Shown one piece after another: positions 7,991-56,335 of a stretch of DNA of 57,362 bases. Where the stretch lies: sequence record SRR31156797_3941; one strand, 5' to 3'. The translations under genes were made by a program, and so were the position numbers. The notes under the pieces are model-generated. The model saw only the letters and a program-made list of their open reading frames with translations. It was not told the DNA's origin and searched no databases. Every line of letters begins with the position of its first letter. The stretch's first letter is position 1.

Positions 7991-9763
7991 ATGAAAATTT
8001 TGGTAATCGGTAGCGGCGGTCGCGAACACGCTCTTGTTTGGAAGCTCAAACAGTCATCACGGGCAAGTAAAATATTTTGCGCACCTGGCAATGCAGGCAT
8101 AAGTAAAATTGCCACATGCGTTGATATCGCTGCTGGCGATGTTGAAAATTTACTGCAATTTGCACTCAATGAATCCATAGATCTTACTGTGGTCGGCCCT
8201 GAAGATCCACTTACTAGCGGTATTGTCGATACATTTGAAGATAAGGGGCTGCGTATTTTCGGGCCATCAAAGGCTGGGGCAGAACTTGAGGCAAGCAAAG
8301 CTTTTACTAAGGATTTTCTTAAAAAATATAATATTCCCAGCGCCTCATACAAAGTATTCAGCAAACCTGGACAAGCCAAAAAATATATAGATAAAATTGG
8401 TGCCCCTTGTGTGGTGAAAGCAGATGGCCTCGCTGCTGGCAAAGGTGTCATTATTGCCGAGAGCAAAGACATTGCTAAACAAGCTGTAGACGCCATAATG
8501 AAAGAAAAGCGTTTTGGGGTTGCCGGAGAAAGGGTTGTTGTAGAAAGTTTTTTACGTGGGGAAGAGGCCTCGTTTATTGCCTTTACTGATGGGAAAACCG
8601 TTTTACCGTTACCTTCATCTCAAGATCATAAGGCGGCCTTTGAAGGGGATAGAGGGCCAAATACCGGCGGCATGGGCGCTTACTCACCTGCTCCTATTCT
8701 AACCGACCATTTGACCATGCGTGTTATGAATGAAGTCATGCTGCCCACTGTGAGGGGGATGGCAGAGGAAGGGCGTCCTTATAAAGGGATGCTTTACGCA
8801 GGCCTAATGATAGATAATGATAAAATAAATGTACTCGAATTTAACTGCCGGTTTGGGGATCCTGAGTGCCAGCCTCTCCTGATGCGTTTGAACAGTGACT
8901 TGGTTGATGTACTTGAACACTGTATTGATCAGACCCTCGACGAGATAGAGTTGGATATTGATCCGCGACCTACAGTATGTGTTGTCATGGCCTCAGGCGG
9001 CTACCCTGGAGATTATACAAAGGGCAAGGCTATCACAGGGTTGATCAAGGCAGGGAGGATCAAGAATGTTGAGGTCTTCCATGCGGGAACAACCACTGCA
9101 AACAGAAGGACAGTTACTAACGGCGGTAGAGTACTTGGTATTACCGCCATAGGGCAAAATATTGAAAAGGCGATTCAACTCGCGTACCAGGCCGTCGATG
9201 AGATTAGCTGGTCAGAATCCTATTACCGACGCGACATAGGACATCGAGCTTTAAAACGCTTAAAACAGCAGGAGGGACCATCTGTCGGCATTCTTATGGG
9301 TAGTGACTCTGATTTGCCCGTAATGCAGGCTGCTGCAGACGTACTCAAAAGCTTTGATATATCATATGAGATTCTCATTGCTTCTGCACACAGGACGCCT
9401 GCTCAAGCTGCAGATTATGCACAAACAGCCTACGAACGCGGCGTAAAATTGATCATTGCCGGTGCCGGAATGGCCGCGCATCTCGCTGGTGTTTTGGCTG
9501 CGCATACCACAATACCGGTTATTGGTGTGCCAATTGACGCCTCTTCGCTTAACGGTCTTGATGCGTTGCTGTCAACGGTTCAAATGCCCCCTGGAATCCC
9601 GGTTGCAACTATGGGTATCGGTAAAGCTGGAGCCAAAAATGCTGCGGTATTAGCAGCACGTATTCTTGGTATTACCGACCAAGAGATGCAGGAGAAACTG
9701 ACGCAACACGCTCTTGATATGGAACAGCAAGTATTGGAAAAAAATAATGCTTTAAAAGCATGA
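7991..9763 (+). CDS. purD: Fused phosphoribosylamine-glycine ligase (PurD) and N5-CAIR mutase (PurE)
   Basis: PurD motifs GSGGREHAL, GPNTGGMGAYSP and EFNCRFGDPE are followed in frame by PurE motifs ILMGSDSD, SAHRTP, AGMAAHLAG and STVQMPPGIPVAT. Confidence 0.96.
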   Translation: MKILVIGSGGREHALVWKLKQSSRASKIFCAPGNAGISKIATCVDIAAGDVENLLQFALNESIDLTVVGPEDPLTSGIVDTFEDKGLRIFGPSKAGAELEASKAFTKDFLKKYNIPSASYKVFSKPGQAKKYIDKIGAPCVVKADGLAAGKGVIIAESKDIAKQAVDAIMKEKRFGVAGERVVVESFLRGEEASFIAFTDGKTVLPLPSSQDHKAAFEGDRGPNTGGMGAYSPAPILTDHLTMRVMNEVMLPTVRGMAEEGRPYKGMLYAGLMIDNDKINVLEFNCRFGDPECQPLLMRLNSDLVDVLEHCIDQTLDEIELDIDPRPTVCVVMASGGYPGDYTKGKAITGLIKAGRIKNVEVFHAGTTTANRRTVTNGGRVLGITAIGQNIEKAIQLAYQAVDEISWSESYYRRDIGHRALKRLKQQEGPSVGILMGSDSDLPVMQAAADVLKSFDISYEILIASAHRTPAQAADYAQTAYERGVKLIIAGAGMAAHLAGVLAAHTTIPVIGVPIDASSLNGLDALLSTVQMPPGIPVATMGIGKAGAKNAAVLAARILGITDQEMQEKLTQHALDMEQQVLEKNNALKA

Positions 9764-10746: not shown

Positions 10747-10766
10747 CAGCAAAGGAAAATGATGGT

Positions 10767-10811
10767 ACTCCGAAGAGCAGCGAGAACGATGTCTCAAGGC
10801 ACTTCGGAGTA
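10767..10811. terminator. Hairpin between the convergent Hpt and rhodanese genes
   Basis: TACTCCGAAG...CTTCGGAGTA 10-bp inverted repeat with an inner GAGA/TCTC stem. Confidence 0.55.
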
Positions 10812-10832: not shown

Positions 10833-12155
10833 TTACGGTCTTATAATCTCGCAATCACACTCAGCATCAGCAATATTGAGCAGCAAAAATTTTGCCTTAT
10901 AACCATTTTTCAACAACTCTTTATAGGCCATATCAGCCCTAGCTCCACTTGCGCAATGGACGTAAATTTTCTTGTCCTTGGGCAGTTCGCTCATACGAGC
11001 TGGGATCTCATCGAGCGGGATATTAACCGTATTCTTAAATATCCCCAATTCTGCCACTTCAGCCTTTGTACGGGCATCGACGATAATCGCCCCCTTATCT
11101 TCACCTGAGGCTGCTTTTCTAAAATCTGCTAAGGAAACTTCACCTTTACCAAGCTTACGCACCCAACGTATTTCAGTATTGAAAATCGGGCCTTTTTCAA
11201 TTGCTTCGCCGGAAGCTATCCAACCAGCGAACCCACCCTGCACAAGAGAAACAAATTTAAACCCATCGTCGCGCATGTCTTCCACGGCATCAAGGGTTTC
11301 CTGGTCACCGTAGAGAATAACAGGTGCGTTACGGGGGATATCATCGAGTCGGTCATCAAGTTGATCATACGGAATGGAGTAAGCGCCCTTAATACGACCC
11401 TTGACAGCCTCATTACTGGCACGAACATCCACAAGCACAACATTGCCGTTTTTGATAAAATCATGAGTGGCATAAGTCGGCAGAAATGCCTTGGCCCATG
11501 CAGGCTCGCCATCAAGGTAAACACGAACGTTTTTATAACCTAATTTCTTCGCCAGACCGGCGGAGGTTGTTGACATGCCTCATGTGGGGCCTCCGCAGTA
11601 GAAAACCAACAACTCGTTTTTGTCAGCCGGGAGCAAAGCTGCCTGTTTTTCTTTAAGGAGGGGGACAGGAACGGAAACCGCACCTGGAAGATGTGATTGA
11701 CCGTATCGACTTGCTGGTCTGGAGTCGACCAAATACATCTTATGATTATCGGCGACTAAAGCGCTTAACTCTTCGGTCTTGATTTCAGTGACGCCCTGAG
11801 GCAGTTTAGCTAATTTCTGCTTAACGACTTTTGCATAGGTGTCATTTCCGCGTTTTTCAAAGGTAATGATCGCAGCATGACCTTTTACAGCATGTTCAAC
11901 GCCCTGGGTTTGGTCATCAAACTTGACCATCATAATTTTGGCTTGTTTTCCTTTGCCAACTTCAATCGAGATGGTTTTGGCTAAATTTGATTTTCCGACT
12001 ATTTTTCCTTTGTAAACATTTTTTTGCACCTGCTGCTTGGTCTGTCCGGTTTTGGGAGTCATATCTTGCTTGACGTCCTCTTTCTGCGCACAGCCAAAAC
12101 TCAGCAGGCAGATCATCAACAATCCAGGTAAAAATTTGACACAGCTTTTATGCAC
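10833..12155 (-). CDS. Selenocysteine-containing multi-rhodanese (sulfurtransferase) lipoprotein, about 440 aa, Sec encoded by TGA at 11580-11582
   Basis: ORFs 11580-12206 and 10833-11576 are in frame and separated only by TGA-GGC, giving FYCGGPT-U-GMSTTSAGLAKKLGY. GTG start at 12155 follows AGGAGG. Lipobox LSFGC, three rhodanese domains and a SECIS-like hairpin after the TGA. Confidence 0.88.
11547..11565 (-). promoter_or_regulatory. Bacterial SECIS element
   Basis: Minus strand CTCCGCC-GGTCT-GGCGAAG. The CGCC/GGCG stem starts 18 nt after the UGA and carries a GGUCU apical loop like the E. coli fdhF SECIS. Confidence 0.8.
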
Positions 12156-12455
12156 GTTCAACCTCCTTTGTATGGGATTACAGGGGAAATGGTCCTCATG
12201 CTTCAAGGCTGCAGATTTGGTCCCCCAAATCTGTGTAAATCAAAAAACTCAACCATTTCCTCCTTCCTTCTTTCACACTATTAATATTAGCATTTATGTT
12301 TGTCTTTATTCAAGCACTGTGTAGCCTAATAAAAGGGATAATATTGATAACCACTATCAAACTAATAGATGGACCTAAGCAGTGACCTCTAGAGGAAACC
12401 AGTACGTAGGAACTATCACTCAGATGAAAGTACCTGTCTTAAAGGAATAAAGAAA

Positions 12456-26334: not shown

Positions 26335-28086
26335 ATGAATATTAAAAAATTTTCCCTGCAGTCATGCAGAAAAGAATACACCTATGATCAGGATAAGGCC
26401 TGTTCCCCAACAGAAACCGTACAACGCTTTCACCAGCGACTTAAAGCCACCAGGCTCGACATCTTAAAAGAGGTGAAGCGAATAGACAATGGGCGGTTGG
26501 ATATTCCCGTCTACTTCAGCGTTTGCGGCACCGATGCTGAAAAAATGATTGGCAACAAAAAACAGATGGGCAAAGGATCCACCCCTGAACAATCACAGGC
26601 AAGTGCCTGTATGGAACTCGGTGAAAGATTTTCTTTTTTTAGTTTTGTGCAAAACCATGATAACTTTTTGGTAGGCGACTATAAAGCCATGGAAGAGGCT
26701 GGTCACTCAGTCTTGCCATTGCATATCCTTCTCCAATCAGTACATGACGACAGCTTGGAACCAACAGTTTTAAGAGAGCTGCTTGCAGGTCTTCCAATGC
26801 TCTGGACCTGGGCAACCCGCCTATCCGACATGGAATCAATTCTGATCCCTTTCAGCTGGTTTTATGCCATCAACGAATTTAACGGACCTTCCGCTGGTAA
26901 CACTTACGAAGAAGCCGTAATGCAGGGTATTTGTGAAATTATCGAGCGACACGTTTGTGCCGTCATTACCAGGGATAAGGTCTCAACGCCGTCCATAGAT
27001 CTCGATTCTATAACCGATCCAGTGGCTGTAGATTTAATTAAAAAATTCAGAGCCAATAATATAGAGCTCTGTCTCAGCGATTTTTCTTTGGACACAGGGA
27101 TTCCGACTATCGGCGCAGTTGCTTGGGATCCGCAAACCTTTCCTGAAAAAAGTGAAATTGTCTATACTGCAGGAACGACACCGGATGCAAACAAGGCTGT
27201 AATACGCGCCCTGACAGAAGTTGCTCAATTAGCAGGAGACTTTAACAGCGGTTCTAATTATGTAGCCAGCGGCCTCCCCAAACCCCTGCAGCTTAACGAG
27301 GTGGACCATGTACTTAAGGGCACGCAAATAGGTATTGGTGAAATAGCTGATGTCGATGATGCTGATATGTACCAGGAAGTCAAAAACTGTATTGCTGCTG
27401 TCCAGAAAATGGACACAGATATCTACGTCATTGATACCACCCATCCCGAGTTGCAAATCCCTGCCTTATATACCATTATCCCCGGTGCTCATTTTCGTGA
27501 AAGAGCCATGGGGGGCAATGGGGCAATGTTTGCGGCAAAGCTTGCTTCTCAGCTTCTGGAAGCCGAGAGGCTGACACATAAACTGATTGAGATGGAACAG
27601 GCATTGCCGACAGCCTATTACCTCAAGTTTTATCTAGGGAGGGATGCCTACGAGAACGGCGACCTCATCCAGGCGCTTGAAAATTTTGATAAAGCACTGG
27701 GACTTGATCCCAATGAGGAGGACATTCCTTACATTTTTTCCTACAAGGGAAGTTGCCTGAGGGATATGGGACTTTATACAGAGGCAATAGCCGCCTTGGA
27801 GCAGGGGCTTGCAGTAGATGAAGAAAGGCCGGACATACATAATATCATTGGTGTCTGCTTTTACAAATGCGTCCAGTATGATCAGGCAGTCCACCATTTT
27901 CGCAGGGCAGTGGAGCTTAATCCTGTATCGGCCATTGATTATGCTAATCTGGCACTGAATCTGGAAAAAACAGGACAGCGGCAAGAAGCGATAGAACAAT
28001 ACCAAATCGCGCTGGGTCAGGATCCCACCATTGAGTTTGCAATGCAGCGATTGGAAAAACTGCTTCAAGAATCAAAAGAGGCTTAA
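26335..28086 (+). CDS. YcaO-family protein with C-terminal TPR repeats
   Basis: YcaO motifs GKG..QSQASACMELGER, NGPSAGNTYEEAVMQGICEIIERH and RALTEVAQ; about four TPRs at the C-terminus. Confidence 0.9.
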   Translation: MNIKKFSLQSCRKEYTYDQDKACSPTETVQRFHQRLKATRLDILKEVKRIDNGRLDIPVYFSVCGTDAEKMIGNKKQMGKGSTPEQSQASACMELGERFSFFSFVQNHDNFLVGDYKAMEEAGHSVLPLHILLQSVHDDSLEPTVLRELLAGLPMLWTWATRLSDMESILIPFSWFYAINEFNGPSAGNTYEEAVMQGICEIIERHVCAVITRDKVSTPSIDLDSITDPVAVDLIKKFRANNIELCLSDFSLDTGIPTIGAVAWDPQTFPEKSEIVYTAGTTPDANKAVIRALTEVAQLAGDFNSGSNYVASGLPKPLQLNEVDHVLKGTQIGIGEIADVDDADMYQEVKNCIAAVQKMDTDIYVIDTTHPELQIPALYTIIPGAHFRERAMGGNGAMFAAKLASQLLEAERLTHKLIEMEQALPTAYYLKFYLGRDAYENGDLIQALENFDKALGLDPNEEDIPYIFSYKGSCLRDMGLYTEAIAALEQGLAVDEERPDIHNIIGVCFYKCVQYDQAVHHFRRAVELNPVSAIDYANLALNLEKTGQRQEAIEQYQIALGQDPTIEFAMQRLEKLLQESKEA

Positions 28087-28089
28087 TCC

Positions 28090-29148
28090 TTGAATTGTTC
28101 TCTGCCCAATAATCCTCGTAAAATTCTCATCCGCTCAACTAACTGGATTGGGGATGCTGTTATGACAACCCCGGCGGTACGGACGATACGCGAGAACTTT
28201 CCTGAAACTCAGATCTCGATCCTTGTTCTTCCCTGGGTGAGTGACATATTCCGCTTTAGCCCACGGGTTGATTCCATCATCACCTACGACAAGAAGGGAC
28301 GCCACCAGGGACTTGCAGGTAAGTGGAGACTGGCTAGGGAACTCAGAGCCCAAAATTTTGATTGTGCCATATTGCTGCAGAATGCCTTTGAAGCAGCTTT
28401 CATTGCTACGCTTGCGCGGATACCCTGCCGGGGAGGCTATACAACCGATGCTCGCGGACCTCTTCTTTCTCATAAGGTACGGAAAAACAAGGGCATAAAT
28501 AAAAAACATCAGGTGTATTATTACCAGGAAATGGTACAGGGGCTAGGACTGCAGCCCGGTGATGATGCACTTGAGCTCTATATCCCGCATACCCTTCAGC
28601 AAACCACCAGAGAACAACTCCATTCTGCCACCAAAGGCAGTATTGAAAATAGTCCGCTAATTGGATTTAATCCAGGCGCAGCCTATGGACCTGCAAAGAG
28701 ATGGCCAGCTCAAAAATACGCCGATTTAGCTCGCTCCATCTGCAGCGACCGCGATGCCTATATAGCAGTGTTTGGCACAGCAGCAGATAACGAAGCGGCA
28801 CAGTGTATTAAACAGAATGTCCCAGACCCGGACAAAGTTCTCGACTACACAGGAAAAACTAATCTTGTCGAGGCCATGGCGCTGATAGAGCAGTGCAATG
28901 TGTTTGTCACTAATGATTCCGGCCTCATGCACGTGGCAGCAGCTCTTAACGTGCCGCTTGCCGCAATCTTTGGCTCTACCGATCACATTGCCACCGGTCC
29001 TTTTTCAGACAACAGTGTTATCATTAGAAAACCATTGCCCTGCAGCCCCTGCAAACAGACCCATTGTCCGGAAAAACATCTCCGTTGCCTTGAACAAATT
29101 AAGACAGAAGAAGTTTTTACAGCTGTCACCAACTTATTGCACCAATAA
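28090..29148 (+). CDS. waaF: ADP-heptose:LPS heptosyltransferase II
   Basis: NWIGDAVM, NPGAAYGPAKRWP and VTNDSGLMHVAAA (GT9 family). Confidence 0.92.
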   Translation: MNCSLPNNPRKILIRSTNWIGDAVMTTPAVRTIRENFPETQISILVLPWVSDIFRFSPRVDSIITYDKKGRHQGLAGKWRLARELRAQNFDCAILLQNAFEAAFIATLARIPCRGGYTTDARGPLLSHKVRKNKGINKKHQVYYYQEMVQGLGLQPGDDALELYIPHTLQQTTREQLHSATKGSIENSPLIGFNPGAAYGPAKRWPAQKYADLARSICSDRDAYIAVFGTAADNEAAQCIKQNVPDPDKVLDYTGKTNLVEAMALIEQCNVFVTNDSGLMHVAAALNVPLAAIFGSTDHIATGPFSDNSVIIRKPLPCSPCKQTHCPEKHLRCLEQIKTEEVFTAVTNLLHQ

Positions 29149-29158
29149 GGTCACCACC

Positions 29159-29746
29159 ATGCCTGAAACATTGCGCCCTGCTGTTTTCCTCGATCGCGAC
29201 GGTACCATCAATGAACAGATGGGATATATCAACCATATTTCGAGGTTCCAGCTTCTACCCGGTATTGAGGATGCAATCCGTCGTTTGAATGAGATGAACA
29301 TTCCGGTGATAGTGGTCACTAACCAGTCAGGTCTTGCAAGGGGATATTTTCCAGCCTCCCTCCTTGACCAAGTACACCAAAAGATGGAAAGACAACTGGC
29401 TGCCGCCGGTGCCCATGTGGACGGTATTTATATCTGTCCACACCATCCGGAGGCAAAAGAAGAAAAATATCGTATCGCCTGCAACTGCCGAAAACCCAAA
29501 ACCGGTCTTCTTGAGCAAGCAGCCGTTGAATTAAAAATAGACCTTACAGCTTCTTTTGTTGTGGGGGACAGGTGGTCGGATATACGCTGCGGGAAAGCTG
29601 TGGGAGCCAAATCTATATTGGTTCTTACTGGATATGGCAGGGGAGATGCAGAATATATTGGCCCGAACATGACCATACAACCAGACCATACAGCAGAAAG
29701 CCTGCATTATGCCGTCGATTGGATAGTGGAACATCTCCAGCGGTGA
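29159..29746 (+). CDS. gmhB: D-glycero-D-manno-heptose 1,7-bisphosphate phosphatase (HAD family)
   Basis: FLDRDGTIN, VTNQSG, ICPHHP...CNCRKP and VGDRWSD; ATG at 29159. Confidence 0.93.
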   Translation: MPETLRPAVFLDRDGTINEQMGYINHISRFQLLPGIEDAIRRLNEMNIPVIVVTNQSGLARGYFPASLLDQVHQKMERQLAAAGAHVDGIYICPHHPEAKEEKYRIACNCRKPKTGLLEQAAVELKIDLTASFVVGDRWSDIRCGKAVGAKSILVLTGYGRGDAEYIGPNMTIQPDHTAESLHYAVDWIVEHLQR

Positions 29747-51504: not shown

Positions 51505-52803
51505 TCAAACTTTTTCCAGTATCTCACGACTTCGTTTTACAGCACAAAGATCGCCGCACATGGTGCACACATCCTTGTCGATAGGTTGGGAAGAAGCACG
51601 GTAAGCACGAGCCTTTTCAGGATCAATGGCGAGATCAAACATCTTTTCCCAGTCCAGTTCTTTGCGAGCATGGCTCATCTTGTTATCCCAGTCAATGGCA
51701 TTGGGAATACCTTTGGCTACGTCTGCTGCATGAGCAGCAATACGGGTGGCAATAATTCCCTGCTTCATGTCGTCTTCATCCGGCAGGCGAAGGTGTTCTG
51801 CGGGGGTGACATAGCAGAGAAAATCAGCACCAGATGCGGCTGCCAGTGCGCCACCAATTGCAGAGGTGATATGGTCATAGCCGGGCGCAACATCCGTAAC
51901 AATGGGTCCAAGCACGTAAAATGGTGCTCCATGACAAAGTTTCTTCTCTATCTGCATATTTGAAACCACCTCGTTGAGCGGCACATGGCCCGGTCCTTCG
52001 ATCATGACCTGAACGTCGGCCTCCCAGGATCGTTTGGTCAGCTCACCCAGTACAATCAACTCTTGGATCTGAGCAGCATCAGTGGCATCGTTCAAGCTGC
52101 CCGGGCGCAGTCCGTCACCAAGGCTAAGTGTCACATCGTACTGTCTACACATTTCAAGCAAGCGATCATAATGCTCAAAAAAGGGATTCTCAGCATCATT
52201 GACATCCATCCAGTGGAGCAGTAGTGAGCCGCCACGGCTGACTACGTGAGTGAGGCGAGGGTTGTTTTTCAGTCGCTCGACAGCAGTGCGGTTCAGTCCG
52301 GCATGGATGGTTAAAAAATCGACTCCGTCTTCCGCATGCATTTTGACAACATTAAAAAAATCATCAACTGTGATAGCTCCAACATTTTTACCATAGCGGG
52401 CAACGGCATCATATACCGGTACAGTACCAATCATAGCTGGACAAACTTCCACAGTTCTTTTGCGAAAGGTCTGGGTATCGCCAAAGGTACTTAAATCCAT
52501 AATGGCATCTGCCTTGAGTTCCACCGAACGACGAACCTTCGTAAGCTCTTTCTCTACGTTGCAGCAGTCCTCGGATACACCAAGATTAACGTTAACCTTA
52601 GTCCGTAGGCCACTGCCAATACCACAGCCAACGAGGTTGGTATGATTCACATTTGCGGGTATGACAATATGGCCGTTGGCTATTTTGGTTAAAAGATCAG
52701 TTTCTGCTATGACTTCACTTGCAAGCACGTCCTGCATCTGTTTGGTGACAATGCCCTGCCGTGCTGCGTCCATCTGGGTTGTATATGTGGTCACTTTATT
52801 CAC
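51505..52803 (-). CDS. thiC: Phosphomethylpyrimidine synthase
   Basis: [48 protein letters not shown] and CTMCGDLC. Confidence 0.97.
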
Positions 52804-52854
52804 TCCGAAAGATGTATATTTTTCGTTATTGATAAATGATTAAGGATAAAAAGA

Positions 52855-53493
52855 CTAAAAGATGTTGTTCAAGTTTTTCACCGCCTGGGCAATATCATCT
52901 GCGCCGACAATCTCTGAGACAAGGCAGATTGACTGTGCACCACGCTTTACCACCTCATCAATGTTGTGCTGCTTAATGCCGCCGATTGCGACACATGGGA
53001 TGATGGCATTTTTCACTGCATATTCAAGGTAATCGAAACCTACCGCAGCACAGGCATTTTCCTTGGTTTTAGTGGCGTAAATAGGACCGACACCTATATA
53101 GTCTGCCCCGACTTCCTGTGCCTGTTGCAACTGCTCAGGCGAATGGGTCGACAGCCCGATGATCTTATCTGGCCCAAGCAGGTGACGAACCGCATAGACT
53201 GGTAAATCTTCTTGGCCTACGTGGACGCCGTCGGCATCGACAAGGAGGGCGATATCGACAAAATCGTTGATGATAAAAGTGACCCCATGCTCTCTTGTAA
53301 TATCTCTGATTGCCTGGCATTCAGCTAAAATGTCACAATAGTCTTTCTGGTGTCTTTTTTCTCGGTACTGTATGACCTTGATACCGCCTTTGATCATTTC
53401 TTCTACGACATGGATATTTGAGCGGCCGCAGGAAAATTTTTCAGAGGTGATACCGTAAATCCCAAGTGGTAGAGTTGTGGTATTACATATCAT
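52855..53493 (-). CDS. thiE: Thiamine-phosphate synthase
   Basis: QYREK, INDFVDIA..DADGVHVGQED, GLSTH, GPIYATKTK and AIGGI. Start is 53493 or 53505. Confidence 0.95.
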   Translation of the reverse strand: MICNTTTLPLGIYGITSEKFSCGRSNIHVVEEMIKGGIKVIQYREKRHQKDYCDILAECQAIRDITREHGVTFIINDFVDIALLVDADGVHVGQEDLPVYAVRHLLGPDKIIGLSTHSPEQLQQAQEVGADYIGVGPIYATKTKENACAAVGFDYLEYAVKNAIIPCVAIGGIKQHNIDEVVKRGAQSICLVSEIVGADDIAQAVKNLNNIF

Positions 53494-54022
53494 TATCTTT
53501 TCCAAAGTTAAGAAGAACCGCTGTCATGCGAGCAGCCACCGTCACAACCTTATGGGCATATAGCGCTGCGTGACAACAGTCAGTGGTAAAATCACCTATA
53601 ACATGAGTGTTGCCGATTTTTTTAACGTAGATGGTTTCAATATCGCTGCCGGCAATCCCGCTTGCAGAAACAACCAACCGTTTGTTTTGGCTAAAATGCT
53701 CGATCACCATTTTTTTATCTGCCTGTTTGTCAAGGCCTTCGACAATGGTGTCACAGTTAAGAAAAAGCTGGTTAATATTATCAGATGTAATGTGCTCGGT
53801 GCTGACTTCAATTTTGATATCAGGATTAATACGTTCCAGGTTGTAGCGCAGCATCTTCACCTTTAGTCTTCCAACCTGATCGGCAAAATAGAACTGTCGG
53901 TCCAGGTTCGAAGATTCAACACGATCAAAATCAATAATCTTAAATGCAGTGATGCCGCTACGAACAAGGTTTACCGCAACATTAGAGCCAACCCCGCCGG
54001 CACCGGCTATTCCTATCTTCAT
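53483..54022 (-). CDS. thiF: Sulfur carrier protein ThiS adenylyltransferase (short ThiF type)
   Basis: GIAGAGGVGS and DFDRVESSNLDRQ; TAATG coupling to thiH. Confidence 0.9.
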   Translation of the reverse strand: MKIGIAGAGGVGSNVAVNLVRSGITAFKIIDFDRVESSNLDRQFYFADQVGRLKVKMLRYNLERINPDIKIEVSTEHITSDNINQLFLNCDTIVEGLDKQADKKMVIEHFSQNKRLVVSASGIAGSDIETIYVKKIGNTHVIGDFTTDCCHAALYAHKVVTVAARMTAVLLNFGKDNDM

Positions 54023-55128
54023 TAAATTTGGTCCCAATCCTTATACACAGGTTGATAACCATGGGTAGTTATAGCATCTGCCACCTGGCATACACTACGA
54101 GTGTCTGTAATCTCAAATTGAGGAGTATCTGTTTCTTCGTTTTCCGAGTAACCTCCGACACTGGTACATACTCCTGCGGAGAGGCGGGTTGCGCCAAGAT
54201 GTATCAGGTTATCGCGCATCATTTGATTTTCCCTGGTGGAAACAGTGATGCCGGCACGCGGCTGAAAAAGTCTTAAAGCCATTAAAAATTGAACAAAGGT
54301 TCTGTCATCCACAGGATATTGAGGAGAGAAATCACAATCAGCTTCGTTAAAGCGGGGCAGGGAGACGGAAATTTCAGTATCGAGGTAGGTATCATCCAGG
54401 TACGCTGCGTGCAAACCAGTAAAGAAAAATTCACTCCGTTTTTCGCCTAAACCCAGCAAAGCACCAATATTGACAGATCTGAAACCAGCTTTTGCTCCAC
54501 GTTCAGGCCCATCAAGCCTGAAAAAGTAATCTTTCTTTTTGCCTGCCACATGGACCTCAGCATAGACCTTTTGATCATACGCTTCCTGGAAAAGGGTTAA
54601 TCCATCAACACCTGCCTTTTTCAACTGCCTGTATTCATCCACGTTCATGGGGAAAATTTCAATTGAAACCGACGCGAAGTATTTTTTGAGACAGGTAACT
54701 GCTTCAACCAAGTAATCTATCGGAGTCGCTTGTTTTGATTCACCGGTTAGCACCAGCAAATGTTGGAGCCCTGTCGCAGCAATTGACTGGGCCTCTTTCT
54801 CTATTTCGTGAAGAGACAGCTTGCGACGGACAATATGATTAGCTTTGTTAAAACCGCAATAAATGCAATGGTTAGAGCAAAAATTTGAGATGTAAAGCGG
54901 GGTGAAAAGTTGAATAGTTTTACCGAAGTACTGCACAGTAAGGCGTTGGGCCTTGTGAGCTATTAATTCTAAATGTTCAGCAGCTTTTGGGCTAAGCAGG
55001 GTAAGAAAATCCATGGGCTGGATTGTGTCCTTGGCAACAATACGCTCAATATCATTATCCGTGACCTGCTCAAAAAAATCTGGAAAAGAGAAACCTTTGT
55101 ACTGCTCAACTATTTGAGAGAAGGACAT
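54022..55128 (-). CDS. thiH: 2-iminoacetate synthase (radical SAM)
   Basis: PLYISNFCSNHCIYCGF, FQEAY, STRE and YQPVYKDWD; RBS AGGAG. Confidence 0.95.
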   Translation of the reverse strand: MSFSQIVEQYKGFSFPDFFEQVTDNDIERIVAKDTIQPMDFLTLLSPKAAEHLELIAHKAQRLTVQYFGKTIQLFTPLYISNFCSNHCIYCGFNKANHIVRRKLSLHEIEKEAQSIAATGLQHLLVLTGESKQATPIDYLVEAVTCLKKYFASVSIEIFPMNVDEYRQLKKAGVDGLTLFQEAYDQKVYAEVHVAGKKKDYFFRLDGPERGAKAGFRSVNIGALLGLGEKRSEFFFTGLHAAYLDDTYLDTEISVSLPRFNEADCDFSPQYPVDDRTFVQFLMALRLFQPRAGITVSTRENQMMRDNLIHLGATRLSAGVCTSVGGYSENEETDTPQFEITDTRSVCQVADAITTHGYQPVYKDWDQI

Positions 55129-55178
55129 GTTCCACTCCTGTATTAAGGTCAATAGCAAATAGTAAAAGTGCCCTCAGG

Positions 55179-55949
55179 TTAGTTCAGAAAACCTGTTAAC
55201 GGTGAGGATGCCCGGGCAGCAGTGCTCATTTCCTGGGCCTCTGCCAGGTAAGCAGCTCGCCCTGCTCGTACTGCCAAGTTAAAAGCGCTGCCCATAGTCT
55301 CGGGGTCTTTTGCGGTAGCAATAGCAGTATTAACAAGCACAGCGTCAGCGCCCATCTCCATTGCTGCTGCAGCTTGAGAAGGTTGGCCTATCCCGGCATC
55401 AATCACCACCGGTATGGAGCAGTTTTCAATCAGCATCGCGAGCAGCGGTTTTGTCTCCAGTCCTCGATTGGTACCGATCGGAGACCCAAGCGGCATAACT
55501 GCGGCAGCCCCTGCAGACTCAAGCCTTTTGGCAAGCGGTAAGTCTGGCAGCACATAAGGCAGCACCACAAAACCTTCTTTAGCCAGTGTTTCCGTAGCGT
55601 TGAGTGTCTCATAGTTATCTGGCATCAGGTATTTAGAGTCGGTGATCACCTCAATTTTGATAAAATTTCCGCAACCTGCCTCCCTGGCAATGCGTGCCAC
55701 TCGTACTGCTTCTTTTGCTGTGCGTGCACCGGATGTGTTGGGGAGCAGAGTGACGTTATCGGGTATAAAATCAAGGATGTTTTCAGTTTTTGACCCAATA
55801 TCAATACGCCTCAAGGCAACGGTGATCATCTGGGAACCGCTTGCTTTAAGCATTTTTGGGATTTGGGTATTTGCAGCAAATTTTCCGGTTCCGGTAAAAA
55901 GACGGTTGGTAAAGGTTAGGTTGCCGAGTTTCAGGCCTTGATCCACCAT
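55179..55949 (-). CDS. thiG: Thiazole synthase
   Basis: [37 protein letters not shown] and ASSP. Confidence 0.97.
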
Positions 55950-56200: not shown

Positions 56201-56245
56201 GAAAGTCTCAAAAAATATAAATAGAATTTTGAAAATTCGTTATTA

Positions 56246-56328
56246 GCCGCTTCCCTTCGCCGGTATTATCCGGATCAGGTTGTAAGGGTTGGATAGATTC
56301 CTCTCAGCAGAGACAGCACCCCTAGCGA
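56246..56328 (-). ncRNA. TPP riboswitch aptamer (THI element)
   Basis: Minus strand CTAGGGGTGC...GCTGAGA...ACCCTTACAACCTGATCCGGATAATACCGGCGAAGGGAAG, upstream of thiS. Confidence 0.96.
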
Positions 56329-56335
56329 TGTTTCT

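Follow-up and report, generated by a model that had tools for sequence, protein, structure and literature searches.

What is made from a gene whose only in-frame TGA falls inside the active-site loop of a rhodanese domain, and what might its product do? The question is raised by a locus in a 57,362-nucleotide stretch of DNA from sequence record SRR31156797_3941 (the window). On the minus strand, positions 10833..12155 form one gene of 440 codons followed by a TAA stop at 10835-10833. It begins with a GTG (12155-12153), where the N-termini of homologues align, and its single in-frame TGA, at 11582-11580, is codon 192. A first-pass annotation, made from the letters of the DNA, had described an exported lipoprotein with three differently armed rhodanese domains, the first containing selenocysteine (Sec), and had proposed that it passes sulfane sulfur between its sites. 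Its list of motifs was found to be right in full; all of them lie on the minus strand, which it had left unstated. Chance is excluded for these features because the reading frame runs on across the TGA in 45 related loci, and it is confirmed that the gene is real and that its features were correctly observed.

Comparison of related loci identifies the TGA as a predicted selenocysteine codon, the reading of which is aided by a putative selenocysteine insertion sequence (SECIS) hairpin. A scan taking one genome per species gave 332 confirmed relatives, of which the best 80 loci were compared. At the site of codon 192, TGA is present in 45 of them and a cysteine codon, TGC or TGT, in 34, the last being a partial locus that ends short of the site. 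The flanking residues F-Y-C-G-G-x-T-[U/C] and the reading frame are kept throughout the related loci. Of the 45 TGA loci, 44 read GCC GGT CTG GCG at codons +7 to +10 past the TGA. The remaining one has CAG for CTG, a non-synonymous change, so that not one synonymous change is found among the 45, while neighbouring codons vary freely. Among 36 Cys-type sequences the first alanine codon of the hairpin is GCC in 20, GCG in 9, GCT in 4 and GCA in 2, and the second is GCC in 15, GCG in 10, GCA in 6 and GCT in 5. With a TGA/Cys column and conserved hairpin codons, the selenocysteine reading of the first-pass annotation is upheld.

The rules for bacterial SECIS elements place the loop 16-37 nt past the UGA, with a G in the first two loop positions and a loop of 3-9 nt, and they require no fewer than 4 bp in the stem, with a minimum free energy of -7.5 kcal/mol or lower (PMC13188914). 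The hairpin CGCC-GGUCU-GGCG conforms to the loop, stem and spacing rules (PMC13188914). Two observations tell against selenocysteine. Folded alone, the 24 nt of the hairpin reach -7.3 kcal/mol and narrowly miss the -7.5 rule (a 63-nt stretch gives -9.6), and tRNA-Sec scored below the cut-off in the closest metagenome-assembled genome (MAG). An 81-nt stretch round the UGA was no more stable than its shuffles (z -0.08), and because the fold energy is not better than that of shuffles the case for the SECIS element rests on conservation. The decoding gene selB was found above cut-off in all four related genomes searched, and tRNA-Sec in three of the four. One of these four selB-bearing relatives has the Cys form of the gene, so the Cys form does not arise simply from loss of the Sec machinery.

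The adjacent hrpA gene terminates in TGA, and TGA is thus otherwise a stop in this organism. The alternative to selenocysteine is that codon 192 is a true stop, either between two proteins of 191 and 247 amino acids (aa), as publicly annotated, or in a pseudogene. Public records follow the first of these courses: at least 53 of the 120 database matches listed are open reading frame (ORF) calls of 247-248 aa, and the three such ORFs retrieved start at a Met two codons past the TGA. A true stop would however cut rhodanese domain 1 within its active-site loop and leave the second ORF without a signal peptide, where the Cys homologues are continuous. It would also have to be reconciled with a TGA kept in 45 loci, with hairpin codons identical in all but one of these, and with the Sec machinery found in relatives, and it can be given almost no weight. 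The split Sec forms in public protein sets include those of Desulfobulbus propionicus DSM 2032, a type strain, and Desulfogranum mediterraneum. Two rhodanese genes listed side by side in the genome paper of Desulfocapsa sulfexigens, UWK_03368 and UWK_03369, might be the two halves of one Sec gene of the window type; this is offered as a lead only.

How is the selenocysteine set within the protein? Pfam PF00581 (Rhodanese) matches in three stretches, with 137.8 bits against a cut-off of 22.2. Structure prediction, which the first-pass annotation had suggested as a check, gave an OB barrel and three rhodanese-type domains: in an AlphaFold2 (AF2) model built from a 59-row alignment (mean predicted local distance difference test, pLDDT, 85.7; predicted template modelling score, pTM, 0.77), three alpha/beta domains are seen, the fold matches of which are rhodaneses. 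The features of the gene are collected in the table below.

Features of the selenocysteine lipoprotein gene and its flanks (window coordinates; residue numbers refer to the 440-residue product)
Feature	Position	Strand	Basis or remark
Whole gene, Sec lipoprotein: OB domain and three rhodanese domains	10833..12155	-	Sequence, Pfam, full-length Cys homologues of ~440 aa
Shine-Dalgarno sequence AGGAGG	12162..12167	-	Six bases 5' of the GTG start
Signal peptide and lipobox L-S-F-G-C, residues 1-22 (lipobox 18-22)	12090..12155	-	Lipobox rule, conservation; Cys22 predicted lipid-modified
Low-complexity tether, residues 23-44, predicted disordered	12024..12089	-	pLDDT < 50 for 18-44; poorly conserved
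OB-fold beta-barrel domain, residues 45-117	11805..12023	-	AF2 pLDDT 92.7, five strands
Rhodanese domain 1, residues 118-229	11469..11804	-	Pfam best stretch 128-222; TsoB profile match
Active-site loop C187-G-G-P-T-U192	11580..11597	-	Sec codon 11582-11580; aligns with TsoB U-A-G-L-[T/A]-U
Putative SECIS apical hairpin CGCC-GGUCU-GGCG	11550..11562	-	4-bp stem, 5-nt loop starting 21 nt after UGA
Rhodanese domain 2, residues 230-322, I-L-Y-G-D-Q at 280-285	11190..11468	-	Without catalytic Cys
Rhodanese domain 3, residues 336-428	10872..11150	-	C401-A-S-G-A-R406 loop at 10938-10955
C-terminal tail E-C-D-C-E-I-I-R-P, residues 432-440, Cys pair	10836..10862	-	C435 >= 90% conserved
Stem-loop after the stop, between convergent genes	10766..10811	-	96-nt fold -25.7 kcal/mol, z = -4.1

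The three rhodanese domains are armed as had been described from the letters. In the model of domain 1 the central strand at 183-186 is directly followed by Cys187, and a helix runs from residue 194. The corresponding strand of domain 3 spans 396-400, C401 comes next and the helix runs from 405. By these strand and helix limits the domain 1 loop, the CGGPTU of the first-pass annotation at residues 187-192, is two to three residues longer than that of domain 3 and has Sec192 at its end. The assignment of Cys187 to the canonical position rests on the model strand ends and on the alignment with TsoB given below; it is opposed by a MAFFT alignment of the three domains, in which C187 falls one column off C401. 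Domain 2 has invariant L281 and Y282 in its ILYGDQ loop and Cys in none of the aligned rows, in keeping with a domain described as having no catalytic Cys. The HCASGAR loop of domain 3 (residues 400-406) is canonical: C401, G404 and R406 show no variation across 59 rows and fit the six-residue sulfurtransferase loop C-x-x-G-x-R/T, and the best sequence matches of this domain in the Protein Data Bank are the rhodanese domains of CoA-disulfide/persulfide reductases. The terminal ECDCE is present at residues 432-436. Model confidence is low at its N-terminal edge (pLDDT < 50 at 429-433), and distant members of the family have the Cys pair with different spacing.

Export is indicated by the N-terminus. 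The lipobox rule applied, a PROSITE PS51257-type pattern, matches residues 12-22 of the window protein and 52 of 59 aligned homologues. Among the seven that miss it, six retain G-C following a hydrophobic segment, and conservation reaches 90% or more at both G21 and C22. The lipobox LSFG-C reported earlier is thus present and agrees with the rule. From these signals the mature protein is predicted to be exported and lipid-anchored to a membrane, facing the periplasm. Haem c attachment takes place outside the cytoplasm, and export is further supported because proteins of a sister clade, considered below, have a signal peptide and a haem-c motif.

The domain next to the tether, described earlier as beta-rich, becomes a five-strand OB barrel when folded alone with AF2. 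Foldseek placed CusF/SilF at the top of its matches (TM-score 0.73-0.78, E about 1e-3), and VIA gave a Z of 8.5, tied with SSB/PriB. The metal site of CusF consists of conserved His, Met and Trp ligands on an OB barrel. In 63 rows of the domain, no Cys, His, Met or Trp stands among the invariant or nearly invariant columns. An identity as a CusF/SilF metallochaperone was rejected, there being no conserved ligands and the fold match being tied with SSB/PriB. The ESM Atlas leads for this domain were sub-threshold (best 0.86, DUF5666 on 25% of one cluster) and were likewise set aside. On the model, we read the N-terminal domain as a generic OB scaffold with no metal site.

What chemistry might the Cys-x4-Sec loop perform? 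Two sets of relatives bear upon this. The first is a second tier of matches at 33-42% identity, in which the match extends over the OB domain and the full set of three rhodanese domains. In the ten loci of this tier that were examined (L088-L097) an ordinary signal peptide is followed, just before the OB domain, by CxxCH (eight loci) or Cx4CH (two), which replaces the lipobox. Sec occupies the same site in nine of the ten and Cys in one, and a tail F-C-C-F/Y-K ends five of the ten rows. The second set is TsoB (NCBIfam NF045694), catalogued as 'rhodanese form 5, UxxxxU' (PMC13188914). TsoB genes with two TGA codons were found in 25 of 401 genomes, an even sample of the phylum. The protein has an N-terminal membrane helix, a rhodanese domain and a DsbD-like membrane core.

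The TsoB profile matches domain 1 of the window protein with 59.4 bits against a cut-off of 805 (profile 42-158, E 1.8e-16). Pairwise alignment with six TsoB sequences places U-A-G-L-[T/A]-U exactly on C-G-G-P-T-U, Cys187 corresponding to the first Sec and Sec192 to the second. The two rhodanese domains are homologous and have active-site loops of equal length, both are predicted to lie outside the cytoplasm, and in TsoB the hairpin stands at the same distance past the second Sec. A hairpin at this distance past the UGA is found in all nine sister-clade Sec genes, in locus L098 and in two TsoB genes. TsoB differs in its two Sec residues, its membrane helix and its DsbD-like core, and it has neither an OB domain nor further rhodanese domains. 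Membership of the window protein in TsoB was rejected, given 59.4 bits against 805, one Sec and no membrane core. A side observation concerns lone ORFs of ~165-200 aa that hold only the TsoB rhodanese part, with two or three in-frame TGA codons (G055:C23:38466-38939, G400:C53:6958-7428, G376:C26:13491-14006 and G328:C208:89-547). These may be free double-Sec rhodanese domains.

The nearest loci among the best 80 are those of a Desulfobulbus sp. MAG (95% identity) and of Desulfogranum marinum DSM 2058 (90%), and all 80 have titles or placements of Desulfobulbales type. The 'sulfur-cycling organism' envisaged by the first-pass annotation accords with these closest relatives, which are Desulfobulbaceae (Desulfogranum, Desulfobulbus). 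In the even sample of the phylum, 36 of 401 genomes have a match at E <= 1e-25. A quick maximum-likelihood tree of 90 rows (L069 and L080 were left out as too short, and L094 was missed by the motif pattern) separates the haem-motif sister clade from the lipoprotein clade. Nine switches between Sec and Cys are needed on this tree by parsimony, of which at least five are forced by well-supported branches, and the window gene falls in an all-Sec clade. The Cys-x4-Sec/Cys pair is kept in all 90 rows. Two of the related loci, L044 (~1000-2400) and L051 (~1100-2500), each have an extra Cys-type paralogue; it lies some 5 kb upstream of the Sec-type copy and occupies the greA / tsaC-purDE slot that is the place of the gene in other genomes.

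DsbD cores supply thiol pairs of the periplasm with electrons drawn from the cytoplasm. Because it is homologous to the double-Sec site that TsoB fuses to a DsbD-type module, and because the sister clade has a haem motif, the Cys/Sec pair of the window protein is read as redox-active. Domain 1 looks, from these comparisons, like a redox-active centre and not merely a passive sulfur carrier. In general terms the protein probably deals with reactive sulfur in the extracytoplasmic space of a sulfur-cycling bacterium. More specifically, we give roughly an even chance to its being a periplasmic sulfane-sulfur transferase with a redox-active Cys/Sec pair, which would carry and reductively resolve sulfane sulfur in a sulfur cycler of Desulfobulbaceae type. 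The link with sulfur is suggested by the invariant C, G and R of domain 3 and by one sister locus, L096, that lies beside Psr-like genes.

Under this favoured reading, Cys401 of domain 3 would take sulfane sulfur from polysulfide, elemental sulfur or thiosulfate and hold it as a persulfide. The Sec192 selenolate would attack S-S bonds to give an Se-S or Se-S-S bridge with Cys187, sulfide being released or passed on, and an external periplasmic electron donor would reset the Cys187/Sec192 pair. The C-terminal Cys pair may serve as a swinging arm between the sites. A precedent is offered by MccSep, a periplasmic Sec-dependent polysulfide reductase for which Sec and Cys are proposed to form an Se-S-S intermediate (PMC13510729). 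This enzyme, which comes from the same phylum, shows that periplasmic polysulfide cleavage is within the reach of a Sec/Cys pair (PMC13510729). The likeness lies in a periplasmic Sec with a nearby Cys that attack S-S bonds and are reset by an electron supply, and in the existence of both Cys-type and Sec-type members. The folds however are unrelated, MccSep being a pentahaem cytochrome c; a haem motif is absent from the window protein and present in its sister clade only. Of the interpretation in the first-pass annotation, then, the architecture, the export signal and the selenocysteine stand; its persulfide or polysulfide relay stays a proposal, and the emphasis is here moved to redox chemistry.

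That relay is in essence the closest rival. As a pure carrier the protein would bind sulfane sulfur as persulfides and hand it on, in the manner of Sud, to a membrane-bound enzyme (for instance Psr/Phs) or to an importer without redox turnover of its own, and the Sec would merely speed transfer when substrate is low. The canonical sulfurtransferase loop of domain 3 is what such a protein would show, and exported rhodanese-domain proteins of this general kind are known in YnjE and PspE of E. coli and Sud of Wolinella. YnjE has three rhodanese domains, of which only the last is active. This multi-rhodanese periplasmic protein is among the fold matches, but its global superposition is poor (TM-score about 0.22, root-mean-square deviation above 16 A); PspE matches domain 1 by sequence, under curated cut-offs. 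All three lack Sec and a second residue in the loop, as well as any OB domain or lipid anchor. A carrier with no redox turnover would leave unexplained both the DsbD-type wiring of the homologous site in TsoB and the haem motif of the sister clade. A Cys-x4-Sec/Cys pair present in 90 of 90 rows is, moreover, typical of redox pairs and superfluous for a protein that carries a single persulfide. Pure carriage is accordingly a lesser possibility, to be taken seriously but not preferred.

Expression data and gene order from other organisms have also been counted towards the carrier. A periplasmic rhodanese clade, possibly belonging to the family of the window gene, is reported to be found throughout the cable bacteria and to be strongly expressed in Desulfobulbales relatives (PMC13047784). 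The sister locus beside Psr-like genes is L096 (5511-12569), in which a Cys-type gene lies between a gene for a DUF3373 protein, together with a small ORF, and a molybdopterin oxidoreductase gene, followed by an NrfD/PsrC-like gene. By gene order alone this resembles an operon of Desulfurivibrio alkaliphilus (rhodanese, molybdopterin oxidoreductase and polysulfide reductase) which is reported to be highly expressed (PMC5516251).

Does the setting of the window gene itself disclose a function? On one side lie greA, a TetR gene, a fused purD-purE, tsaC and a small Hpt gene, on which the gene converges; on the other lie hrpA, a nucleotidyl transferase gene and priA. A 300-bp spacer separates the gene from hrpA, which agrees with an earlier description of a lone gene with its own upstream region. 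The downstream hairpin of that description is also there, as a stem-loop 3' of the stop. Only 1 of 200 shuffles of the 96-nt stretch was as stable, a pattern-based terminator scan did not flag it, and it is likely to be a terminator.

The reading of the protein as a redox-active sulfur transferase has several features of gene context weighing against it. The neighbours are housekeeping genes, and the synteny recurs in roughly half of the 80 loci, whether the gene is of the Sec or the Cys form, and looks phylogenetic. In 12 related loci that are placed differently, annotation gave unrelated neighbours and no sulfur gene. Psr-like genes adjoin only one of the seven sister loci examined, namely L096, which was the sole setting of sulfur type encountered. 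No reductant partner was identified, the sole candidate, a DsbD-like frame in the closest cultured relative, having been rejected: this frame (L087:3009-4328, genome G001), listed as a 'DsbD-like, 1 TGA' selenoprotein, is a CcdA-type gene ending in TGA together with an in-frame gene for a TlpA-like thioredoxin lipoprotein. Within the window there is no sulfur gene beside the gene, and in the gene context of the related and sister loci that were annotated no conserved functional partner was found. Another of the sister loci, L092, precedes a ten-haem cytochrome.

Such a setting suits a second rival, in which the protein guards protein thiols, clearing persulfides or sulfenic acids or reducing the disulfides of exported proteins in a sulfidic periplasm, somewhat like PspE or DsbG of E. 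coli. DsbD systems normally feed protein-thiol repair, and the site in question is homologous to a DsbD-fused domain. The housekeeping neighbours, and a family that is widespread irrespective of sulfur gene context, have been counted on the same side. A guardian of thiols would need neither an additional canonical rhodanese domain nor a dead one, however, and no thioredoxin-fold partner is linked to the gene. Within what was searched, the family is also confined to sulfur-cycling Desulfobacterota. This explanation we consider unlikely.

In a third rival the substrates would be selenite, tellurite or arsenate, which the protein would bind or reduce at the cell envelope; handling of this kind has been proposed around ExtH. 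In Geobacter sulfurreducens, ExtH is a 49.0-kDa rhodanese-like lipoprotein, the extHIJKL cluster of which is needed for selenite and tellurite reduction (PMC5877670, PMC6148476); it is encoded beside ExtKL, now MccSep (PMC5877670, PMC6148476, PMC13510729). The two proteins are likened by description alone: both are lipoproteins of the rhodanese family, of about the same size and from the same phylum. The genes differ in that ExtH has ext-type neighbours and the window gene is without them. Rhodanese-fold arsenate reductases have a lengthened active-site loop, which has been counted in favour of oxyanion handling. The loop of domain 1 has no Arg, however, and there are no ext, ars or selenium-uptake genes near the window gene or in the 12 annotated loci, so this third explanation is a good deal less probable still.

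Rhodanese selenoproteins have themselves been catalogued since 2005, and a 2026 review distinguishes five forms (PMC13188914). Rows for rhodanese-like selenoproteins appear also in PMC9312934, and rhodanese selenoproteins are named as list items in a 2022 review and in the Olavius paper. Forms 1 to 4 resemble the window protein in having Sec within a rhodanese domain and in coming from organisms of Deltaproteobacteria type. How such a protein is built, whether it is exported and what it does were not described in the text consulted. Form 1, 'UxxS' (WP_010941598.1), fits the U-G-M-S of the window protein and the U-V-L-S of the sister clade, the comparison being made by motif description alone. 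Forms 2 and 4 (UxxG) were rejected as a match: there the Sec is at the canonical Cys position, which in the window protein is held by Cys187, with the Sec five residues on. Form 3, NF041203 (CxU, LYCAU type), was rejected at 70.3 bits against 115, the window motif being C-x4-U. No description of a Sec lipoprotein that joins an OB domain to three rhodanese domains was found in the full-text literature, a search outside which fall subscription papers, notably that of Zhang and Gladyshev (2005) and that of Jahan et al. (2019). The protein is thus a member of the known rhodanese selenoproteins, its architecture was not found described, and it is mis-annotated in public records.

One wider proposal, tentative and rather doubtful, follows the comparison with TsoB and the sister clade. 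On this view an unrecognised class of molybdenum-free periplasmic enzymes, which cleave or form the S-S bonds of polysulfide and persulfides, may have the Cys-x4-Sec rhodanese domain as its catalytic module. The module would exist in three wirings: lipid-anchored in Desulfobulbales, joined to haem c in the sister clade and fused to a DsbD-type electron conduit in TsoB. If this is true, it could supply a step of sulfur activation that is missing from the known periplasmic chemistry of sulfur disproportionators and their relatives. The matter bears on what Desulfobulbaceae, among them disproportionators and relatives of cable bacteria, do with elemental sulfur and polysulfide outside the cytoplasm. 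The family is widespread in this group (332 relatives counted), and its Sec forms are hidden in public records by the splitting of the ORF. The window gene supplies a concrete candidate with defined residues, C187, U192, C401 and C433/C435. A single Sec site links lipoprotein, haem-bearing and DsbD-fused architectures, gene models are corrected, and a family that switches between Sec and Cys is added.

The rest of the window offers some minor observations. A scan against Rfam found only a thiamine pyrophosphate (TPP) riboswitch, and a tRNA scan found nothing. The riboswitch (56235-56333, minus strand, 74 bits) precedes a thiamine operon on the same strand at 51505-55949, which encodes ThiG, a ThiH-like radical SAM protein, ThiF, ThiE and ThiC. 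The fused purD-purE among the neighbours is a 590-aa ORF at 7991-9763 (plus strand) that joins PurD (GARS N, A and C) to PurE (AIR carboxylase), with full-length matches in many related loci. At 26335-28086 (plus strand) a 583-aa ORF has a YcaO domain fused to a run of TPR repeats. Close after it on the same strand, a heptosyltransferase ORF (28090-29148) and a HAD-hydrolase ORF (28898-29746) overlap by about 250 bases as listed, and the true start of the latter is probably further downstream.

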